A stretch of DNA of 7,479 nucleotides, taken from NCBI GenBank assembly GCA_964360965.1, contig CAYHYM010000010.1, positions 19,495 to 26,973 of the forward strand, given 5' to 3'. Both the position numbers and the translations under genes were made by a program. Below, piece after piece: positions 399-7,479 of the stretch (within the stretch, counting starts at the first letter, position 1; each line of letters begins with the position of its first letter). The notes under the pieces were generated by a model that saw nothing but the letters and a program-made list of their open reading frames with translations, was not told the origin of the DNA and searched no databases. Origin of the DNA: an uncultured Gammaproteobacteria bacterium (lineage in GTDB: Bacteria; Patescibacteriota; Microgenomatia; Daviesbacterales; UBA10151).

Positions 399-623
399 AT
401 GAATATAGAAAATGGATCTAATAAAGAAAAAAGAGCAAATGAAGTGGGAGAAGCATATGCTAAATATCTAGACTCTGGTGATATTAGGCCTTTTTTCGAA
501 ACCTTTCACAAGCGAGTTCTTAGAGAATATGGTTTTATTGGAAGACTTATACAACCAGTAGCAACCTGGGTTTCTATGAAAGCATATGAGTTTGATAAAA
601 GGAGAGAGGAAAAATATGGCTAA
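399..623 (+). CDS. hypothetical small protein (74 aa), no recognisable family
   Basis: Open frame between the hairpin element and dnaK, overlapping the dnaK start by 8 nt. There is no clear Shine-Dalgarno sequence and I recognise no motif. It may be spurious. Confidence 0.3.
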
Positions 624-2580
624 AATTGTAGGTATAGATCTTGGAACTACAAATAGCTGTGTGGCAGTAATGGAGGGCGGGAAGCCCAAAGTTATTCATA
701 GCGCTGAAGGGGAAAATATTATCCCTTCTGTTTCAAATCCCAATAAAAATATTGTGGGCAGGGTGGCTAAAAGGCAGGCTGTGGTTAATCCTAAAGAAAC
801 TATCTTCTCTATTAAGAGACTGATGGGTAGAAAGTTTAAAGATGCTGAGGTACAGCGTGATATTAAATGGTTATCCTACACTATCAAAGAAGGTAAAAAT
901 GGCATGGCGGTGGTGGAGGTAGAAGGACATGAATATACCCCACAGGAAATCTCCGCCCAGATTTTACAAAAAATAAAAGCTGATGCTGAATCCTATTTAG
1001 GAGAAAAAGTGACAGATGCTGTAATTACAGTTCCTGCTTATTTTGATGATTCACAAAGGCAGGCCACCAAACAGGCTGGAGAAATTGCCGGACTTAATGT
1101 CCAAAGAATTATTAATGAACCAACTGCTGCTGCTTTAGCCTATGGTCTGGATAAATCTCATGCCCACACCATTGTTGTCTATGATTTAGGTGGTGGCACT
1201 TTTGATATTTCTATTTTAGAGTTGGGAGAAGGAGTTTTTGAGGTCAAATCAACAGCCGGCGACACCCATCTGGGAGGGGATGATTTTGATCAGGTAATCC
1301 TGAATCATCTGGCTGATGAATTTAAAAAAGAACAGGGAATTGATCTTAAAGGTGATAAACAAGCTTTACAAAGACTTAGAGATGCTGCTGAAAAAGCCAA
1401 GATTGAATTATCCTCTACTCAAGAGGCATCAATTTCCATCCCTTTTGTGACTGCTGACTCATCTGGTCCCAAGCATTTGGAGATGAAATTATCCAGAGCC
1501 AAGCTTGAGGTTATGGTCAAGCCTTTGATTGATAAAACATTTGATGCTGTTAAGGCATGTCTTAAGGATGCCAAAATGGAGGCCAAAGATATTGAGGAAG
1601 TGATTTTGGTTGGGGGTATGACCAGAATGCCGGCAGTGCAAAAGGCAGTGCAGGACTTTTTTGGCAAAGAACCACACAAGGGTATAAACCCAGATGAAGT
1701 CGTGGCTGTGGGAGCTGCAATTCAAGGTGGAGTTTTAGGTGGAGAAGTTAAGGATGTATTACTTTTGGATGTTACCCCTTTGACTTTGGGAATTGAGACT
1801 TTAGGTGGAGTAAGAACTCCATTGATTGTCAGAAATACCACTATTCCTTCTTCCAAATCAGAAATTTTCTCCACAGCTGCTGATAATCAAACATCTGTAG
1901 AGATTAATGTGCTGCAAGGAGAGAGAGAAATGGCAGCTGATAACAAATCTTTGGGCAGATTTATCTTAGATGGTATTCCGCCAGCCCCAAGAGGTGTTCC
2001 ACAAGTTGAGGTGGTTTTTGACATTGATGCCAATGGCATTTTAAATGTTTCTGCCAAAGATAAAGCAACCAGTAAGGAACAAAAGATAACTATTACTGGT
2101 TCCACAGGTTTATCTAAAGACGAAGTGGAAAAAATGACTAAAGAGGCAGAAGCACATGCGGAAGAGGATAAAAAGAAAAAAGAGGGTATAGAAATTAGAA
2201 ATATTGCTGACTCTTTAGTTTATCAAACAGAGAAGACTTTAAAAGAGCAAGGGGATAAAGTTCCAGCAGAGGTAAGGACAGAAGTGGAGCAGAAGTTAAA
2301 TGAGCTTAAGGAAGCTATGAAAGGTGAGAATACTGATGATATTAAAACCAAAGGTGATGCTCTGGGAGAATCTTTACAAAAAATAGGAGCTTCAATGTAT
2401 GGTTCTCAAGGTGAACAACCTAACACCTCGGATGGTGGCCGAGCCGGAGGCGAGGACTCCTCCGAGGTGGGCAAAGAGCCAAAGGAAGAAGCTGTGGAAG
2501 GTGAAGTGGTGGAGGATCCTTCGACCCCTTCGACAGGCTCAGGGCAAGCTAGCTCAGGACAAAGAAAAAAAGAGGAATAA
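616..2580 (+). CDS. dnaK: Hsp70 chaperone DnaK (654 aa)
   Basis: ATG at 616 is preceded by AAAGGAGAGAGGA (598-610). The N-terminus [22 protein letters not shown] and the motifs [23 protein letters not shown](V)GAAIQ and [10 protein letters not shown] are all canonical. The ORF-track start at 586 is only an upstream in-frame extension. Confidence 0.97.
2424..2562. repeat. GC-rich palindromic modules embedded in frame in the dnaK C-terminal tail
   Basis: An 8-bp inverted repeat cacctcgg (2424-2431) / ccgaggtg (2462-2469) has a nested 6-bp hairpin cggagg (2445-2450) / cctccg (2459-2464). A second module at 2511-2562, ggaggatccttcgaccccttcgacaggctcagggcaagctagctcaggacaa, shares GGATCCTTCG, TTCGAC and GCTCAGGA with 3887-3938 and with the infB insert. 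Confidence 0.6.
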
Positions 2581-2586
2581 TTTCCT

Positions 2587-3186
2587 ATGACAGAGCCAGA
2601 TAAAAGTGAGCATGTTTCTCCACTAATGTTAAATCAACGACTGATTGTGATTATTAAAAGAGAAGCTATAAATGAGGTTGCAAATGGCTTACCTAATTCA
2701 GTAATAGCATTACAGCAGGCTGAAAATGTAGTATCAATTGCTAGTAGAAGTATTTTATACAAAGTTCCAAGGAGAATATTTGAGGACGAACGGGCCCAAA
2801 ATATAGCAAGAGAGCTTGAAACTTTATTTGGGTTTGCATACCATCTTACTAATACAGGTCGACAGGTTATTACTGGAGATATTCTTGAATATTTATTTGG
2901 GCCTGGTCTGCCTGATGAACACAACCCTGATAAAAGAATTCCTATTCCAGGATATATTGCCGATTTGGTAAAGTCAGAGGAAGGAGGCTTATTTAATAAG
3001 GAAAAGGCCCCTGAATTAGAAGCTGGCGCGTACAGATCATTAAAAAGAAATTCAGATATTGCTACAAGATGGGTTAACCCATTTAAATTTTTACAACCTT
3101 TAGGTTATGAGATTAAAGATATGCTAGATGTTGTGGAGCATTGGGAATCTGAATTAATAAAAAAGCATGGTGTAATCCCCCAATAA
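2587..3186 (+). CDS. hypothetical protein (199 aa), no family recognised
   Basis: A long open frame starts 7 nt after the dnaK stop, with GAGG (2572-2575) 11 nt upstream of the ATG. It has coding-like composition and no low-complexity sequence. I see no catalytic or DNA-binding motif. It lies between the two copies of the dnaK 3' end. Confidence 0.6.
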   Translation: MTEPDKSEHVSPLMLNQRLIVIIKREAINEVANGLPNSVIALQQAENVVSIASRSILYKVPRRIFEDERAQNIARELETLFGFAYHLTNTGRQVITGDILEYLFGPGLPDEHNPDKRIPIPGYIADLVKSEEGGLFNKEKAPELEAGAYRSLKRNSDIATRWVNPFKFLQPLGYEIKDMLDVVEHWESELIKKHGVIPQ

Positions 3187-3242
3187 TATTTTCATTTTTC
3201 CCACGACCGTAGCATAAATGTATGGATGGGAATTCAGTTTGA

Positions 3243-3265
3243 GCATTTTTAATGGTGGAATCCTA
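3243..3265 (+). repeat. 23-bp direct repeat, copy 1 (gcatttttaatggtggaatccta)
   Basis: Identical 23-mer at 4044-4066. Its 3' half, ggaatcctaatt-like, resembles the inner end of the left hairpin arms (gcaggaatctaatt, gcgggaatccaatt). Confidence 0.8.
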
Positions 3266-3267
3266 TT

Positions 3268-3297
3268 TTGTATTTTTGTAGTACTTTGTGGTACAAT
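3268..3297 (+). promoter_or_regulatory. putative sigma70-type promoter for brnT-brnA
   Basis: TTGTAT (3268-3273), an 18-bp spacer, then an extended -10 TGgTACAAT (3289-3297). The predicted start is near 3304-3305, only 4-5 nt before the brnT ATG, giving a near-leaderless mRNA. Confidence 0.5.
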
Positions 3298-3308
3298 TTG
3301 TTTTGTGA

Positions 3309-3602
3309 ATGAAAGTAGATGAGCTTATTTTCAATGAAAGAAATATTGAACATATAGCTCGTCATAATGTTTTGCCAGAAGAAGTTAAGGAAGTTATAGA
3401 AGGGAATATTTTACCGCTGAAAGCTAAATTAGGGAGAGTGATGGTGATAGGTAAGACTAAAAAAAGTAGAACTTTGGCTGTAATTTTAGAAAAGTTTAAA
3501 GGTAATATCTACTTTCCTGTGACAGCTAGAGGTGCTGATAGGAAAGAAAGGAAAATGTATAAGGAAGAGATAGGAGGTGAAAATGAAAAAGAAAGTAATT
3601 AA
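3309..3602 (+). CDS. brnT: BrnT-family (DUF497-like) type II toxin, 97 aa
   Basis: The N-terminal ...FNERNIEHIARHNVLPEEVKEV... matches the WDxxNxxHIxxHGVxxEEAEEV pattern of BrnT-like toxins. The C-terminal ...PVTARGADRKERKMY matches the conserved (I/V)(S/T)AR...(K/R)ER..Y end. The gene overlaps the downstream antitoxin gene. Confidence 0.8.
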   Translation: MKVDELIFNERNIEHIARHNVLPEEVKEVIEGNILPLKAKLGRVMVIGKTKKSRTLAVILEKFKGNIYFPVTARGADRKERKMYKEEIGGENEKESN

Positions 3603-3861
3603 AATGCCCAAATTTAAAAATTATGAGGAAGAAACCCGTTTCTGGGGTACTCACTCTATTGCTGATTTTAGGAAAGAGCTTAAAAAAACTAACTTAGAGG
3701 TAAAAAAACCTTTAAAAATGACTTTTACTGTCAGGCTTGATCCTAAAACTGTGAAAGAGCTTGATAGTGTGGCCAAGGAGAAAGGGGTAGGCCCTAGAAC
3801 CTTAGCCAGGATGTGGCTTTTAGAAAAGTTAAAAGAGGACTATTATTCTAAATCTGCTTAA
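3583..3861 (+). CDS. brnA: BrnA / CopG-like antitoxin, 92 aa
   Basis: ATG at 3583 lies 6 nt after AGGAGG (3572-3577) and overlaps the brnT 3' end by 20 nt. MPKFKNYEEETRFWGTHSIADF... and the C-terminal ...RLDPKTVKELDSVAKEKGVGPRTLARMWLLEKLKE are the typical BrnA-antitoxin layout (an FW.THD-type N-terminus plus a ribbon-helix-helix-like C-terminus). Confidence 0.8.
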   Translation: MKKKVIKMPKFKNYEEETRFWGTHSIADFRKELKKTNLEVKKPLKMTFTVRLDPKTVKELDSVAKEKGVGPRTLARMWLLEKLKEDYYSKSA

Positions 3862-3862
3862 G

Positions 3863-3955
3863 GAAGCAGTTGAAGGTGAAGTGGTTGAAGATCCTTCGGC
3901 GGGTTCGACAAGCTCACCGCAAGCAAGCTCAGGACAAGGAAAAAAGTCAGAGTAA
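3863..3955 (+). pseudogene. orphan duplicate of the last 31 codons of dnaK, including the stop
   Basis: It aligns without gaps to 2488-2580 at 75/93 identical nucleotides by hand count. It reads [30 protein letters not shown] against [30 protein letters not shown] in dnaK. It begins immediately after the brnA stop and has no start codon or upstream dnaK body. Confidence 0.85.
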
Positions 3956-4043
3956 CTATGACTTAAGCTACTTCTATAGGTGAGTTGTTAAATCCAGTAG
4001 CTATATATCAACGCCTCAGTGATATTTATTATCCTAATTTGTC

Positions 4044-4066
4044 GCATTTTTAATGGTGGAATCCTA
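4044..4066 (+). repeat. 23-bp direct repeat, copy 2
   Basis: Identical to 3243-3265. Locally, atcctaatttg also occurs twice, 30 bp apart (4031-4041 and 4061-4071). Confidence 0.8.
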
Positions 4067-4079
4067 ATTTGCCTCCTTT

Positions 4080-4165
4080 GTCATTCCTGCGAATGCAGGA
4101 ATCTAATTAAAAACTAACTTAAAATGGTTAATTGGATACCGGTATTCACCGGTATGACAGATAAG
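4080..4165. repeat. MITE-like double-hairpin element, second copy, immediately upstream of the GIY-YIG gene
   Basis: Left arm 4080-4108: gtcat-tcctgc-gaat-gcagga-atctaatt. Right arm 4128-4158: ttaattggat-accggt-attc-accggt-atgac, followed by agataag. The layout matches 290-371. Confidence 0.75.
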
Positions 4166-4181
4166 GTGTCATAATTAAACT

Positions 4182-4463
4182 ATGTATTATGTTTACATTT
4201 TAGCTTCTAAAAGAAATGGAACTTTATATATTGGTATAACAAATAATTTAGTCAAAAGAGTATATGAGCATAAAAATGATTTAGTAGAAGGATTTACTAA
4301 GAAATACCAAGTTCATAATCTGGTTTACTTTGAGCCACATGAAGATGTCAATGAGGCTATAACTAGAGAGAAACAAATGAAGGAATGGAAAAGATATTGG
4401 AAAATAAAAACTATCAATAAATTTAATTCTGGTTGGAAAGATTTATACAGCTCAATTGTTTAA
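4182..4463 (+). CDS. stand-alone GIY-YIG (URI-domain) nuclease family protein, 93 aa (UPF0213 / COG2827-like)
   Basis: MYYVYILASKRNGTLYIGITNNLVKRVYEHK... carries the GIY-YIG beta-hairpin motifs (YVYIL ... LYIG) plus the conserved R..EH and the downstream E...E.K..W.R..K segment typical of this family. The stop TAA (4461-4463) lies inside the conserved TTAATTGGAT repeat box. Confidence 0.9.
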   Translation: MYYVYILASKRNGTLYIGITNNLVKRVYEHKNDLVEGFTKKYQVHNLVYFEPHEDVNEAITREKQMKEWKRYWKIKTINKFNSGWKDLYSSIV

Positions 4464-4490
4464 TTGGATCCCCGCGTAGGCGGGGATGAC
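4460..4490 (+). repeat. solo hairpin unit (right-arm type) overlapping the GIY-YIG stop codon
   Basis: ttaattggat-ccccgc-gtag-gcgggg-atgac. The conserved boxes are identical to 334-364 and 4128-4158, and the stem is different but perfectly complementary. Confidence 0.8.
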
Positions 4491-4501
4491 GTAACCGCAA
4501 G

Positions 4502-4528
4502 CTAGCAGTTTAAGCAAGCGACTGCTAT
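4502..4528. promoter_or_regulatory. CIRCE-like inverted repeat (candidate HrcA operator) in front of dnaJ
   Basis: cTAGCAgTt-N9-GAcTGCTAt compared with the CIRCE consensus TTAGCACTC-N9-GAGTGCTAA. The 9-nt spacer is exact, with 6/9 and 7/9 matches. The C-to-G change in the left arm is mirrored by G-to-C in the right arm, so the palindrome TAGCAGT/ACTGCTA is kept. It overlaps the -10 box. Confidence 0.45.
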
Positions 4529-4531
4529 AAT
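4523..4531 (+). promoter_or_regulatory. extended -10 promoter element (TGcTATAAT) for dnaJ
   Basis: A perfect TATAAT at 4526-4531 follows TG at 4523-4524. The -35 is poor (tagcag, 4503-4508). The -10 ends 7 nt before the dnaJ ATG at 4539 and no Shine-Dalgarno sequence is present, which suggests a leaderless dnaJ transcript. Confidence 0.45.
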
Positions 4532-4538
4532 ACAATCC

Positions 4539-5288
4539 ATGGCTAAAAGAGATTACTATGAAATTTTAGGGGTAAATAAATCAGCATCTACTGATGAAAT
4601 AAAATTAGCTTATAGAAGACTTGCCAGGAAACATCATCCTGATGTAGATAAATCTGCCGGGGCTGCAGAGAGATTTAAAGAAATAGGGGAAGCTTACCAG
4701 GTTTTATCTGATCCGCAAAAGAAACAATCATATGATCAGTTTGGCCATGCTGCTTTTGACAGAGGAGCCGGAGGATATGGTGGAGGAGCAGGGCCTTTTG
4801 GTGGCGGCGGGCAATCCTACAGTTGGTCTACTTCAGGTAACCCCAATATTCAGTTTGACTTTGGCGGATTTGAGGATCCATTTGAACTTTTTGAACAAAT
4901 TTTTGGCGGTGGGTTTGGTGCTGCCATGAGACGCCGCCCAACTTATCAACTTAATCTAACTTTTGATGAGGCCATCCATGGAGTGACTAAAGAAATAGAG
5001 GTGGAAGAAAGAAATAGTCAGGGAAGATTAACTAGAAAGAGACTTAAGATTAAAGTTCCGGCAGGAGTTGATAATGGGACTAGAATGCGTTTTGGTCCGT
5101 CAGCTGACGGATTGGATATTGTATTCAGAGTCCCCCGCCATCCGCATTTTTTGCGAGAAGGAGCGGATATTTTTTCGGAAATTAATATAACTATTCCCCA
5201 GCTGGTTTTGGGGGATATCTTTGAAGTAGAAACTGTTTCCGGAAAAGTCAAGGTAAAAGTCCCTCGGGAACACAACCTGGAAGCTTAG
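4539..5288 (+). CDS. dnaJ: DnaJ/CbpA-like class B J-protein (J domain, G/F region, no zinc finger); the frame ends prematurely because of a frameshift
   Basis: MAKRDYYEILGV...YRRLARKHHPDV...FKEIGEAYQVLSDPQKKQSYDQFG is a J domain with the HPD motif, followed by a Gly/Phe-rich linker. There is no cysteine and so no CxxCxGxG repeats. ...LKIKVPAGVDNGTRMRF is the C-terminal substrate-binding domain. The frame stops at TAG 5286-5288 while the homology continues in another frame. Confidence 0.85.
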   Translation: MAKRDYYEILGVNKSASTDEIKLAYRRLARKHHPDVDKSAGAAERFKEIGEAYQVLSDPQKKQSYDQFGHAAFDRGAGGYGGGAGPFGGGGQSYSWSTSGNPNIQFDFGGFEDPFELFEQIFGGGFGAAMRRRPTYQLNLTFDEAIHGVTKEIEVEERNSQGRLTRKRLKIKVPAGVDNGTRMRFGPSADGLDIVFRVPRHPHFLREGADIFSEINITIPQLVLGDIFEVETVSGKVKVKVPREHNLEA

Positions 5289-6618: not shown

Positions 6619-7479
6619 ATGGCAGAAAACATAAGACCACCTATTGTAACCATCCTTGGCCATGTTGATCATGGTAAGACTACCTTACTCGATTTTATCC
6701 GTAAATCTAATGTAGCCTCCAAAGAACATGGTGGAATTACCCAACACATTGGTGCCTACCAGATTGAGGTTCCGCAGGAACCGAAATCCCGAGAGAGCGA
6801 AGCGAATCGAGGGATCCTTCGGCAAGTCTTCGACTCCGAGGACTTCGACGGTGAGCTCAGTCGAACCGTCGCTCAGACTCGAGGAGCTCAGGATGATTTT
6901 GCGAATAACCGCAAAATCACTTTCATAGATACTCCTGGTCATGCTGCCTTTGAAAAAATGCGATCTCGGGGTGCAAAGGTTGCGGATATCGCAGTACTGG
7001 TGGTGGCAGTTGATGATGGAATAATGCCTCAAACTATTGAGTCCATAAAACATATTCAGGAAGCAAAGATTCCCTTGATTGCGGCAGTTAATAAGGTAGA
7101 TTTAGCAGGAATTAATTTAAAAGTTCAACTGGAAAAGATCAAAAAACAACTTTCAGATAAAGGAGTTTTGGTTGAAGAATATGGTGGAGATGTGCCTGTT
7201 GTGCCTTTGTCAGCAAAAACAGGAGAAGGAGTAGATAAGCTTTTGGAGATGATTTCACTTGTTGCAGAAATGCATGAGATAAAAGGGGATCCTCAAACTC
7301 CTGCATCCGGGGTGGTAATTGAAGCTAATTTAGATAAATTTAAAGGACCTATTGCCACAATTTTGGTAAGGAATGGCCAACTTAAGAAAGGTGACCAGAT
7401 AATGGTTGGTGGAGTAAAAGGAAGAGTTCGTGGGATGTTTGATTTTTCAGGTAAAAGCTTAGATCAGGCTGGACCATCA
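6619..7479 (+). CDS. infB: translation initiation factor IF-2, 5' part (3' end outside the window), carrying a 47-codon in-frame insertion
   Basis: Not listed in the ORF track because there is no stop in the window. I read the frame codon by codon through 6960 (the whole insert and both junctions) and translated the rest at sight, without seeing a stop from ATG 6619 to 7479. [25 protein letters not shown] (G1), [10 protein letters not shown] (G2), [10 protein letters not shown] (G3), NKVD (G4), SAKTG (G5), then ...[29 protein letters not shown]... (domain II). An in-frame TGA at 6592-6594 rules out any N-terminal extension. Confidence 0.93.
6769..6909. repeat. 141-nt GC-rich palindromic repeat block inserted in frame in the infB G domain
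   Basis: 79/141 G+C (56%) by hand count, against 23/60 in 6661-6720 and 20/60 in 7081-7140. Hairpins: ggttcc-gca-ggaacc (6767-6781), atccc...gggat (6786-6815) and gacggt-N12-accgtc (6846-6869). The GGATCCTTCG, (C)TTCGAC x2, GCTCAG x3 and GCTCAGGA motifs are shared with the dnaK tail repeats. Other bacterial IF2 proteins have only about 5-8 residues here (E. coli AYHVETENGMITFLDTPGH). Confidence 0.7.

Follow-up and report, generated by a model that had tools for sequence, protein, structure and literature searches.

How do accessory genes enter the gap between dnaK and dnaJ while dnaK itself stays intact, and why does a second copy of the dnaK 3' end lie behind them? These questions are raised by a 7,479-nt stretch of DNA (the window) from a groundwater metagenome of Hainich well H51 (data ERZ1292623/27/43 and ERR3858113), in which dnaK is followed by the open reading frame (ORF) ORF199, by a toxin-antitoxin operon of the BrnT/BrnA type (brnTA), and then by a displaced copy of dnaK's own last codons, which we refer to as the orphan. 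Coordinates are positions in the window unless they carry a label such as L001 or L004; these labels denote the contigs or loci that were compared, among them L007 (GCA_964399745.1) and L012 (GCA_039738275.1). By tblastn, among the matches listed, the window DnaK is 85 to 88% identical to those of contigs from Candidatus Daviesbacteria (Microgenomates, in the candidate phyla radiation [CPR]). The CPR bacteria, or Patescibacteria, have tiny genomes with few recognisable mobile elements, and the route by which they gain and exchange accessory genes is largely unknown. An earlier reading of the window, made from its letters alone (the original prediction), had described ORF199 and brnTA as one cassette bracketed by two in-frame dnaK ends, as left by site-specific integration into a gene's 3' terminus or by recombination between repeats. 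Based on comparison with related loci, the dnaK-dnaJ gap in this Daviesbacteria-like lineage appears to be a site of cassette accumulation.

Results

A second copy of the dnaK end follows brnTA

The window contains, in order, the 3' end of grpE, ORF74, dnaK, ORF199, brnT and brnA, a GIY-YIG gene, dnaJ, nusA and the start of infB; upstream, the locus has the order hrcA-grpE-dnaK. The dnaK gene (616 to 2580, plus strand; 654 amino acids [aa]; Pfam HSP70, E=2.4e-261) is intact and is flanked by a repeat made of its own 3' end. Copy 1 of this repeat (2488 to 2580, plus strand) is the 3' end now used by dnaK, comprising the last 30 codons plus TAA, and is homologous to the real dnaK ends of relatives. 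Copy 2, the orphan (3863 to 3955, plus strand), begins 1 nt past the brnA stop codon (3859 to 3861) and has kept the frame and the TAA. The two copies are identical at 75 of 93 nt and align without gaps, both in the dnaK frame, and the chance expectation of such a match anywhere in the window is ~6e-20. The 7-mer CTATGAC follows both stop codons (2585 to 2591 and 3956 to 3962). Thus, the in-frame, TAA-terminated duplication and its position at the brnA stop codon are both as the original prediction had described them.

The spacer after the orphan (3956 to 4043), which ends in a partial core, ATCCTAATTTG, of the R2 repeat described below, is unique: no match was found elsewhere among the sequences compared. 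We rejected the idea that copy 2 runs on into a relic of the ORF199 5' end, since 3956 to 4043 scores no higher against ORF199 than shuffled sequence does, with only CTATGAC in common. A second, dnaJ-proximal spacer (4493 to 4538, plus strand) resembles the sequence upstream of dnaJ in L007 and L012 and leads to dnaJ, which starts at 4539.

The low assembly coverage (3 to 6x) could suggest a metagenome artefact in which two strains were fused at the repeated dnaK end. However, the identical arrangement is present in four assemblies (3 replicate ENA assemblies of the well H51 metagenome and 1 Logan assembly); the L001 and L213 contigs cover it in full, and L002 matches window positions 2533 to 3929 at 100%. 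A chimeric join at the repeat is not plausible because the longest exact stretch common to both copies is only 14 nt. In addition, equivalent architecture is found in unrelated samples and metagenome-assembled genomes. We therefore exclude an assembly artefact, the remaining probability of which is negligible.

Orphan dnaK ends recur in related lineages

Daviesbacteria relatives were picked by tblastn from a loose dnaK-end pattern scan of genome contigs, the listed matches of which were mostly unrelated single ones, and a profile built from dnaK ends was used to count copies in each relative. The profile finds 1 copy in every relative without brnTA and at least 2 in brnTA-bearing relatives. 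Behind cassettes, orphans were found in at least six related lineages, with up to three in one array: they are present in the window, L007 (two), L009/L010, L011, L012, L133, L134 and L137/L138 (three). Each relative with a dnaK-linked brnTA has a dnaK-end copy, complete or remnant, 1 to 46 nt (usually 1 to 7 nt) past the brnA stop codon; in L006, which is also dnaK-linked, only a short remnant follows brnA. Besides its real end and an orphan behind brnA, L012 has a partial dnaK-end relic at a more distal position (L012:1903-1971); this relic contains the GC-rich module discussed below. Orphans extend from (GCA)GTTGAAGG to the dnaK stop codon, and the sequences downstream of them are unrelated. 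In the arrays, the orphan consists of the last 14 to 17 dnaK codons; the window copy, with 30 codons plus stop, reaches 93 nt because the dnaK tail of this lineage carries a 45-nt GC-rich insert.

The arrays show the same relation to genes other than brnTA. L007 has the order dnaK end, brnTA, orphan, a 58-aa ORF with a Fic gene, orphan, dnaJ-proximal spacer and dnaJ. L137 has a PBECR-like or RelE-like/DUF2283 pair, orphan, ORF218, brnTA, orphan, a hairpin with a minus-strand ORF, a DUF4258/MqsA-like pair and a third orphan. In such arrays, each orphan follows the last gene of a plus-strand toxin-antitoxin operon, usually 1 to 7 nt past its stop codon; the exception is in L007, where a hairpin-containing extension of ~40 nt lies between gene stop and orphan. 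The L137/L138 array also contains segments of 80 to 230 nt (L137 1-240, 1516-1707, 2941-3117 and 4013-4125) that are 79 to 94% similar to each other and overlap ORFs with the common peptide YPPTAAA..STINIG.KP.

No dnaK-like sequence follows brnA in the brnTA homologues located away from dnaK, which comprise all those with BrnA identity of ≤71% together with L139/L214. In L139/L214, BrnA is 78 to 79% identical, and the pair lies among unrelated minus-strand genes, one of which encodes a cohesin-domain protein; the similarity between L139 and L012 ends 2 nt after the stop codon (TAAGT). Since brnTA homologues elsewhere lack an orphan, the orphan is a property of the dnaK site rather than of the brnTA family.

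The gap is empty in some relatives. In L100, dnaJ starts 4 nt after the dnaK stop codon, and in L066 and L094, the dnaK-dnaJ spacer is ~140 to 150 nt long with a terminator and a promoter. Across relatives we found at least 10 different contents between dnaK and dnaJ, all without mobility genes. Because the gap is so variable, and in places empty, everything between dnaK and dnaJ in the window is accessory, as had been proposed for the intervening DNA. The empty sites expected from the original prediction thus exist, but none is followed by the 3956-4079 sequence that it had named.

The bracketed unit is narrower than predicted. ORF199 (2587 to 3186, plus strand) lies directly after dnaK, has no Pfam or PADLOC match and is outside the orphan-bounded unit. 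In L004, ORF199 follows dnaK and is itself followed by a nucleotidyltransferase/HEPN-like toxin-antitoxin pair and dnaJ, without brnTA or a second dnaK end; L006 has ORF199 and then brnTA. Conversely, brnTA and an orphan are present without ORF199 in L007, L009/L010/L011, L012, L133, L134 and L137. ORF199 and brnTA are thus not a single cassette. Between dnaK and brnT, the segment is ~75 nt in L133 and ~290 nt in L007 and holds ORF199 in the window and L006, the minus-strand ORF153 in L009, a zinc-ribbon ORF and ORF58 in L012, and ORF218 in L137.

Within this unit, the brnT-like toxin gene (3309 to 3602, plus strand; 97 aa) has a weak match to Pfam BrnT_toxin (PF04365; 19.4 bits versus a cut-off of 34.5, E=0.0013) and is 75 to 83% identical to its orthologues in dnaK-linked relatives. 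The brnA gene for a CopG-type antitoxin (3577 to 3861, plus strand, with alternative ATG starts at 3583 or 3604) matches Pfam CopG_antitoxin (PF12441) with 42.5 bits versus a cut-off of 28, and 43 homologues of it were found. The pair resembles BrnT/BrnA type II systems in its toxin-first, overlapping arrangement and in the family of its antitoxin, and differs from them in that the toxin is under the Pfam threshold and the clade is tied to the dnaK locus. The element GTAGTACTTTGTGGTACAAT (3278 to 3297, plus strand), which is kept upstream of brnT in L006, L007, L009, L012, L133 and L137, is the putative promoter of the operon.

Divergence between real ends and orphans

In L007, L009 and L012 taken together, real end and orphan differ at 0, 3 and 21 sites in codon positions 1, 2 and 3, respectively. 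All 8 of the differences in L009 are synonymous, and the two peptides are identical. In the window, the first 10 codons contain 4 differences, all synonymous and at third positions; the other 14 are in the low-complexity module and tail, at mixed codon positions. Because the differences are almost only at third positions, real ends and orphans diverged as coding alleles and not as a gene and its decaying in-place duplicate. The simplest reading of this pattern is that the two copies in one genome derive from different lineages and that each was once the working dnaK end.

An old tandem duplication in place, by replication slippage or illegitimate recombination, with neutral decay of the downstream copy, would account for lineage-specific features that both copies share (the module in the window and the shorter EEAKKE tail before the stop in L012) and for the conservation of the brnA-orphan junction across brnTA lineages. 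However, neutral drift in place is expected to put about half of the differences at codon positions 1 and 2. The observed values, 21 of 24 differences at third positions and, in independent pairs, 2 of 19 at positions 1 and 2, give P of ~1e-4 (to 3e-5) under this model. Other cassette types have orphans of their own, and brnTA can be 93% identical between loci in which dnaK is only 77% identical. We consider an in-place duplication very improbable.

In every full-length orphan, the reading frame is intact, a stop codon stands at the homologous place, and changes in length are confined to multiples of 3 nt. This could mean that the orphan is retained for a function, either because reversible excision returns it as the coding end or because it provides expression signals for the next gene. 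In L133 and L011, the truncated orphan has the sequence GGTATAATATAG, after which a small ORF opens with ATG, and it may act as a promoter. On the other hand, orphans have no start codon, the frame in which they follow the upstream gene is not constant (+1 for the window copy, +2 in L009 and L012, 0 in one L137 copy), and no excised form was seen in the DnaK cluster or the protein collection. Furthermore, the downstream genes are often convergent (L009, L012), which makes a common signal role impossible. Retention for function is therefore improbable, if somewhat less so than duplication in place. Two narrower proposals were rejected: translation of the orphan through readthrough or frameshifting out of the antitoxin gene, since the relation of the two frames is not the same at all loci, and a general role as a ribosome-binding site or promoter, because of the convergent downstream genes, with L133/L011 as a possible special case. 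At these two loci (L133 1624-1660 and L011 6273-6310), GGTATAATATAG is perhaps a gene-end leftover that has been turned into a -10 promoter element.

Exchange between genomes and order of events

Comparisons of individual loci point to exchange. Between L009 and L133, dnaK is 76.8% identical and brnTA 93.0%; between L009 and L134, brnTA is 99.1% identical while the dnaK ends and the dnaK-brnT segments differ. L009 and L011 have 4 differences in their first 6215 nt, then dense mismatches from 6216 (the last 55 nt of brnA), and wholly different DNA past the first 17 to 21 nt of the orphan. The L134/L135 breakpoint is ~120 nt upstream of brnT. Breakpoints are found in and around the orphan, but also elsewhere. 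In a neighbour-joining tree of DnaJ, calculated without bootstrap support, brnTA-bearing and brnTA-free genomes are interspersed. The higher identity of brnTA than of dnaK, the mosaic breakpoints and the interspersed DnaJ tree together indicate that the locus has been reshuffled among related genomes.

The order of events can be read from the DNA that adjoins the orphans. The last orphan of L007 runs directly into the dnaJ-proximal spacer, which the window and L012 share upstream of dnaJ. In L133, L134 and L011, the orphan breaks off after 21 nt, with the sequence GTTGAAGGTGAAGTGGTA joined to TAATATAGATATGGCAGAGGC, where an ATG opens a small ORF (MAEAKE...); the L107 counterpart of this ORF begins within the real dnaK end, and L019 has a small ORF in a similar position that begins in the last codons of dnaK. 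Since the orphan is still joined to the original downstream DNA, we infer that the downstream copy is the old dnaK end and that the end now used by dnaK came in with the insert. The predicted insertion footprint at the dnaK 3' terminus, with the downstream copy displaced, is thus supported by the empty sites, the recurrent orphans, the coding-type divergence and the joins of orphans to the dnaJ spacer in L007 and to a small ORF in L133/L011.

A GC-rich in-frame module in the window copies

Compared with every other dnaK end, both window copies have a 45-nt in-frame insert (~2515-2562 and ~3890-3937) of 57 to 59% GC. In copy 1, this module (2515 to 2562, plus strand) has 59% GC versus 40% for the window and is absent from the dnaK ends of L004, L006, L007, L009, L012, L133 and L134; copy 2 has its own at 3890 to 3937. 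The repeats of relatives lack the module and have only the codons for (A)VEGEVVEE-KKEE and the stop, so that the module, contrary to the earlier suggestion, is not the recombination substrate. It had also been suggested that two blocks changed reciprocally in a compensatory manner. The blocks are present as described (ACCCCT..GGG versus GCGGGT..CCG), but a compensatory hairpin is not supported: the minimum-energy folds of the two copies differ and are no better than those of shuffled sequences (z = -1.55 and -1.68, not significant), the proposed stem has only 3 to 4 bp, the L012 copy breaks one pair, and only two pairs possibly covary.

The module fits a REP/RPE-like multicopy short element inserted in frame, with related copies in both dnaK ends of the window, in infB (6766 to 6915) and at L012:1903. 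The infB copy is a 50-codon in-frame insert of 56% GC in the IF2 G domain, between GAYQI and ITFIDTPGH, and carries the dnaK-module motifs GGATCCTTCG...GCTCAGGA. It is absent in L066, L111, L007 and L107, and a longer variant is present in L012 and a shorter one in L094. This insert has the look of a REP/RPE-like element that enters essential genes in frame. A different GC-rich in-frame insert, GCCGCCTCCGCTGAAAGCTCCGGCGAGCC, is present in dnaK tails of other Daviesbacteria, after the VEGEVVEE motif in L092 (reverse complement, ~1690-1770) and before it in L100 (~7420-7466). It seems that the disordered tail of DnaK can accommodate insertions of this kind again and again.

How cassettes may enter

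As the original prediction had noted for the window, no integrase is present: no integrase, transposase or other recombinase domain was found in the window ORFs or within ~6 to 8 kb at any of ~10 related loci. We prefer host homologous recombination after uptake of DNA from related cells as the agent. An incoming dnaK-end copy would recombine with the resident dnaK end and bring new DNA in; the incoming DNA would supply dnaK's new end, and the resident end would be left behind the new cassette. The conserved body of dnaK would serve as a long left arm, and the orphan behind the cassette as a short right arm that is portable and can pair with the dnaK end of the recipient. Such recombination would explain why no recombinase is present, why some breakpoints lie outside the repeat and why the divergence is of the allele type. 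The length of the repeat follows the length of shared sequence, which agrees better with homology than with a fixed site: most relatives have 45 nt, the module brings the repeat to 93 nt, and L007 has ~80 nt with its non-dnaK extension. Competence and the retention of homologous-recombination genes have been reported for Patescibacteria (PMC12455944). We give this reading about an even chance of being correct.

Several observations weigh against it. A repeat of 45 nt at 80 to 90% identity is a poor RecA substrate. The left edges of the orphans fall within ~12 nt of one dnaK position for four different cassette types, and no stretch but GTTGAAGG is invariant in nearly all of the copies; such clustering is more suggestive of a fixed crossover site than of homologous crossovers at scattered points. 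A separate founding event is still required for the first brnA-orphan junction. No excised or hybrid-tail dnaK variant was found in the protein collection, where the DnaK 90% cluster has a single member. Finally, there are only 6 to 7 independent lineages, many of them on short contigs, and the search for recombinases covered only the loci and their flanks.

The alternative, and the main model of the original prediction, is site-specific integration, here with tandem accretion. A recombinase that acts in trans, its gene located at another place in the genome or on a visiting element, would recognise a core in or near GTTGAAGG, and the cassettes would be cis-mobilizable and bring a replacement dnaK end. 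The common left edge of the brnTA, Fic, DUF4258/MqsA-like and PBECR/DUF2283 cassettes is better explained in this way than by homologous recombination, and GTTGAAGG is the longest stretch that is invariant in nearly all pairs of real end and orphan. Empty sites exist, and arrays of target-gene ends are a known footprint of tandem accretion, as in cis-mobilizable elements (CIMEs; PMC5704250) and the Dehalococcoides ssrA islands (PMC3146451). The attL/attR-like arrangement of the original prediction stands with regard to the repeated target-gene end, the intact dnaK and the empty sites, but no integrase accompanies it. As for an identical crossover core, the two window copies share at most 14 nt, only the 8 nt of GTTGAAGG are common to nearly all pairs, and the real end of the window reads GTGGAAGG. 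Some further points tell against a site-specific enzyme. There are no dyad-symmetric binding sites, and the 3-nt periodicity of conservation in the repeat is explained by coding. Between near-identical strains, breakpoints also lie beyond the repeat (within the 3' end of brnA in L009/L011 and upstream of brnT in L134/L135). No attP-like dnaK-end element was found in viral contigs, plasmids or phages: the dnaK-end pattern matches in viral contigs are matches to the pattern only, without DnaK or BrnTA nearby, no BrnA relatives were found there, and plasmid and phage collections gave no BLAST match to the cassette or to an attP-like dnaK end. Site-specific integration is thus a serious possibility, although a less probable one than homologous recombination.

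Two other types of recombination target were rejected. An RNA or tRNA gene is not involved, since Rfam gave 0 matches at E≤1 and there are no tRNAs. An integron-type attC site does not fit, since the copies fold no better than shuffled sequences and into different structures.

Other features of the locus

Homologues of ORF199 form only 2 other clusters among 5.8 billion proteins, both directly after dnaK, and a profile search of 1.84e9 proteins gave nothing informative. We rejected ORF199 as a hidden recombinase because it has no family match, is almost unique among the 1.84e9 representatives and yields an unusable AlphaFold2 model (pLDDT 40.7).

A 28-nt repeat, R2 (GCATTTTTAATGGTGGAATCCTAATTTG), is present in two direct copies that are identical at 27 of 28 nt. 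They are staggered relative to the dnaK-end repeat and bracket brnTA plus orphan. R2a (GCATTTTTAATGGTGGAATCCTATTTTG; 3243 to 3270, plus strand) lies upstream of the brnT promoter-like element, as it does before brnT in L006 and L007, and R2b is at 4044 to 4071 (plus strand). R2 is located 8 to 20 nt upstream of the conserved promoter-like element; it brackets brnTA in L006, precedes brnT in L007, flanks the L004 cassette in a degenerate form and occurs once in the L092 island. We rejected the idea of a genome-wide repeat, since exact-pattern scans of genome and metagenome contig collections gave no match, and among the compared loci R2 is found only inside dnaK-dnaJ islands. R2 may be an operator or a mark of the 5' boundary of a cassette, and R2b may be the start of a further cassette that was cut off by insertion of a hairpin/GIY-YIG unit.

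This GIY-YIG unit (4079 to 4492, plus strand) contains a nuclease gene (4182 to 4463, 93 aa; Pfam GIY-YIG, E=3e-16), hairpin repeats at 4079 to 4160 and 4463 to 4492, and the inverted repeats I1 to I4. It is a separate, later insertion; L083 has a unit of the same kind directly after the dnaK stop codon. The hairpin repeat family (GTCATTCCCGCGNAAGCGGGAATC and its reverse complement) flanks the GIY-YIG gene and is also present at 289 to 365, between grpE and ORF74; it was noted as well in L083, L080 and L137, where the hairpin follows an orphan. The GIY-YIG gene and hairpins may be a mobile unit that shares the dnaK-dnaJ hot spot. ORF199, R2 and the GIY-YIG unit are separate residents of this one hot spot.

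ORF74 (399 to 623), between grpE and dnaK, overlaps the dnaK start by 8 nt and has no family match; L009 has an ORF of different size, ORF111 (2921-3256), in the same place. Within dnaJ, the window has a 1-nt deletion at 5264 (CCTCGGG versus CCTCCGGG in L001) that splits the gene into 4539-5288 and a shifted remainder, while the DnaJ of L001 is intact (309 aa). The deletion, at 3x coverage, probably arose in sequencing or assembly.

Discussion

The dnaK-dnaJ gap of these bacteria offers a concrete and recurring route for accessory-gene gain, in which toxin-antitoxin operons are collected and each is marked by a leftover dnaK end. Repeats, arrays, empty sites, coding-type divergence and recent exchange are all observed at this locus, and the codon pattern and mosaic breakpoints indicate that whole cassettes move between lineages together with dnaK ends. 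The direction of events and the enzyme responsible are what we infer from these observations. If homologous recombination alone is sufficient, safe targeting of an essential gene is open to a selfish cassette that encodes no enzyme; if a recombinase acts in trans, dnaK is a new integration target, and the recombinase is to be found in these genomes.

A more specific and tentative extension of the first case is integrase-free cassette capture. Selfish toxin-antitoxin operons would carry ~45 nt of dnaK end as a portable homology arm, with which the recombination machinery of the host could, once the DNA is taken up, insert them behind dnaK in any related genome. Arrays would grow by accretion, and displaced ends would remain coding-like through repeated recycling as real ends, in effect an integron-like system derived from a gene end in the ultra-small CPR bacteria. 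The disordered DnaK C terminus is reported to facilitate the toxicity of the GraT toxin in Pseudomonas putida (PMC7918210), and this could bear on the association of toxin-antitoxin operons with DnaK-tail copies. The occurrence of at least two dnaK ends within a few kilobases provides a sequence signature with which to find such arrays in other uncultured lineages.

In the searchable literature, we found no paper on dnaK-end repeats or on dnaK as an integration site, and the closest parallels come from other target genes. The CIMEs that undergo tandem accretion at fda in the ICESt1/ICESt3 family of Streptococcus thermophilus (PMC5704250) are likewise integrase-less inserts bounded by repeats of the target-gene 3' end, with the gene restored by a replacement end and tandem units separated by leftover ends. 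The window has what defines a CIME in that work, retained attL and attR without integration or transfer genes. It differs in that no cognate integrase-bearing element was found in the flanks or in viral contigs, plasmids or phages, in that the units are only 0.7 to 1.4 kb and contain essentially one toxin-antitoxin operon each, in its dnaK target and CPR host, and in that the repeat is 45 to 93 nt of coding sequence with allele-type variation rather than a short identical core. The Dehalococcoides ssrA islands (PMC3146451) are similar in that many tandem islands lie behind an essential gene present in one copy; every island terminates in a direct repeat of that 3' end, and some lack an integration module. 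Those islands, however, are 10 to 30 kb long, most have a serine recombinase module (DsiB), and their repeat is 20 bp of an RNA gene, whereas here no recombinase was found and the repeat is protein-coding.

Like integron arrays, the arrays described here consist of small cassettes in the same orientation, each ending in a recombination-site-like repeat that abuts the last stop codon. They differ from integrons in having no intI, no attC-type imperfect palindrome or inverse core, promoters of their own, and a repeat copied from a gene end. Chromosomal integrons often contain toxin-antitoxin cassettes. In the minimal mobile elements of Neisseria, both flanking genes act as arms, and exchange occurs by transformation and homologous recombination. 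As in our loci, variable cassettes without mobility genes lie between two conserved genes; unlike our loci, there are no repeated copies of a flank, whereas the cassette here brings its own right-hand arm. Such Neisseria elements are listed in PMC3787668 and PMC3082526. Compared with all of these systems, the locus is a case of accretion at a gene 3' end that is distinguished by its dnaK target, its CPR host, its tiny integrase-less toxin-antitoxin cassettes and the coding-type divergence of its leftover ends.

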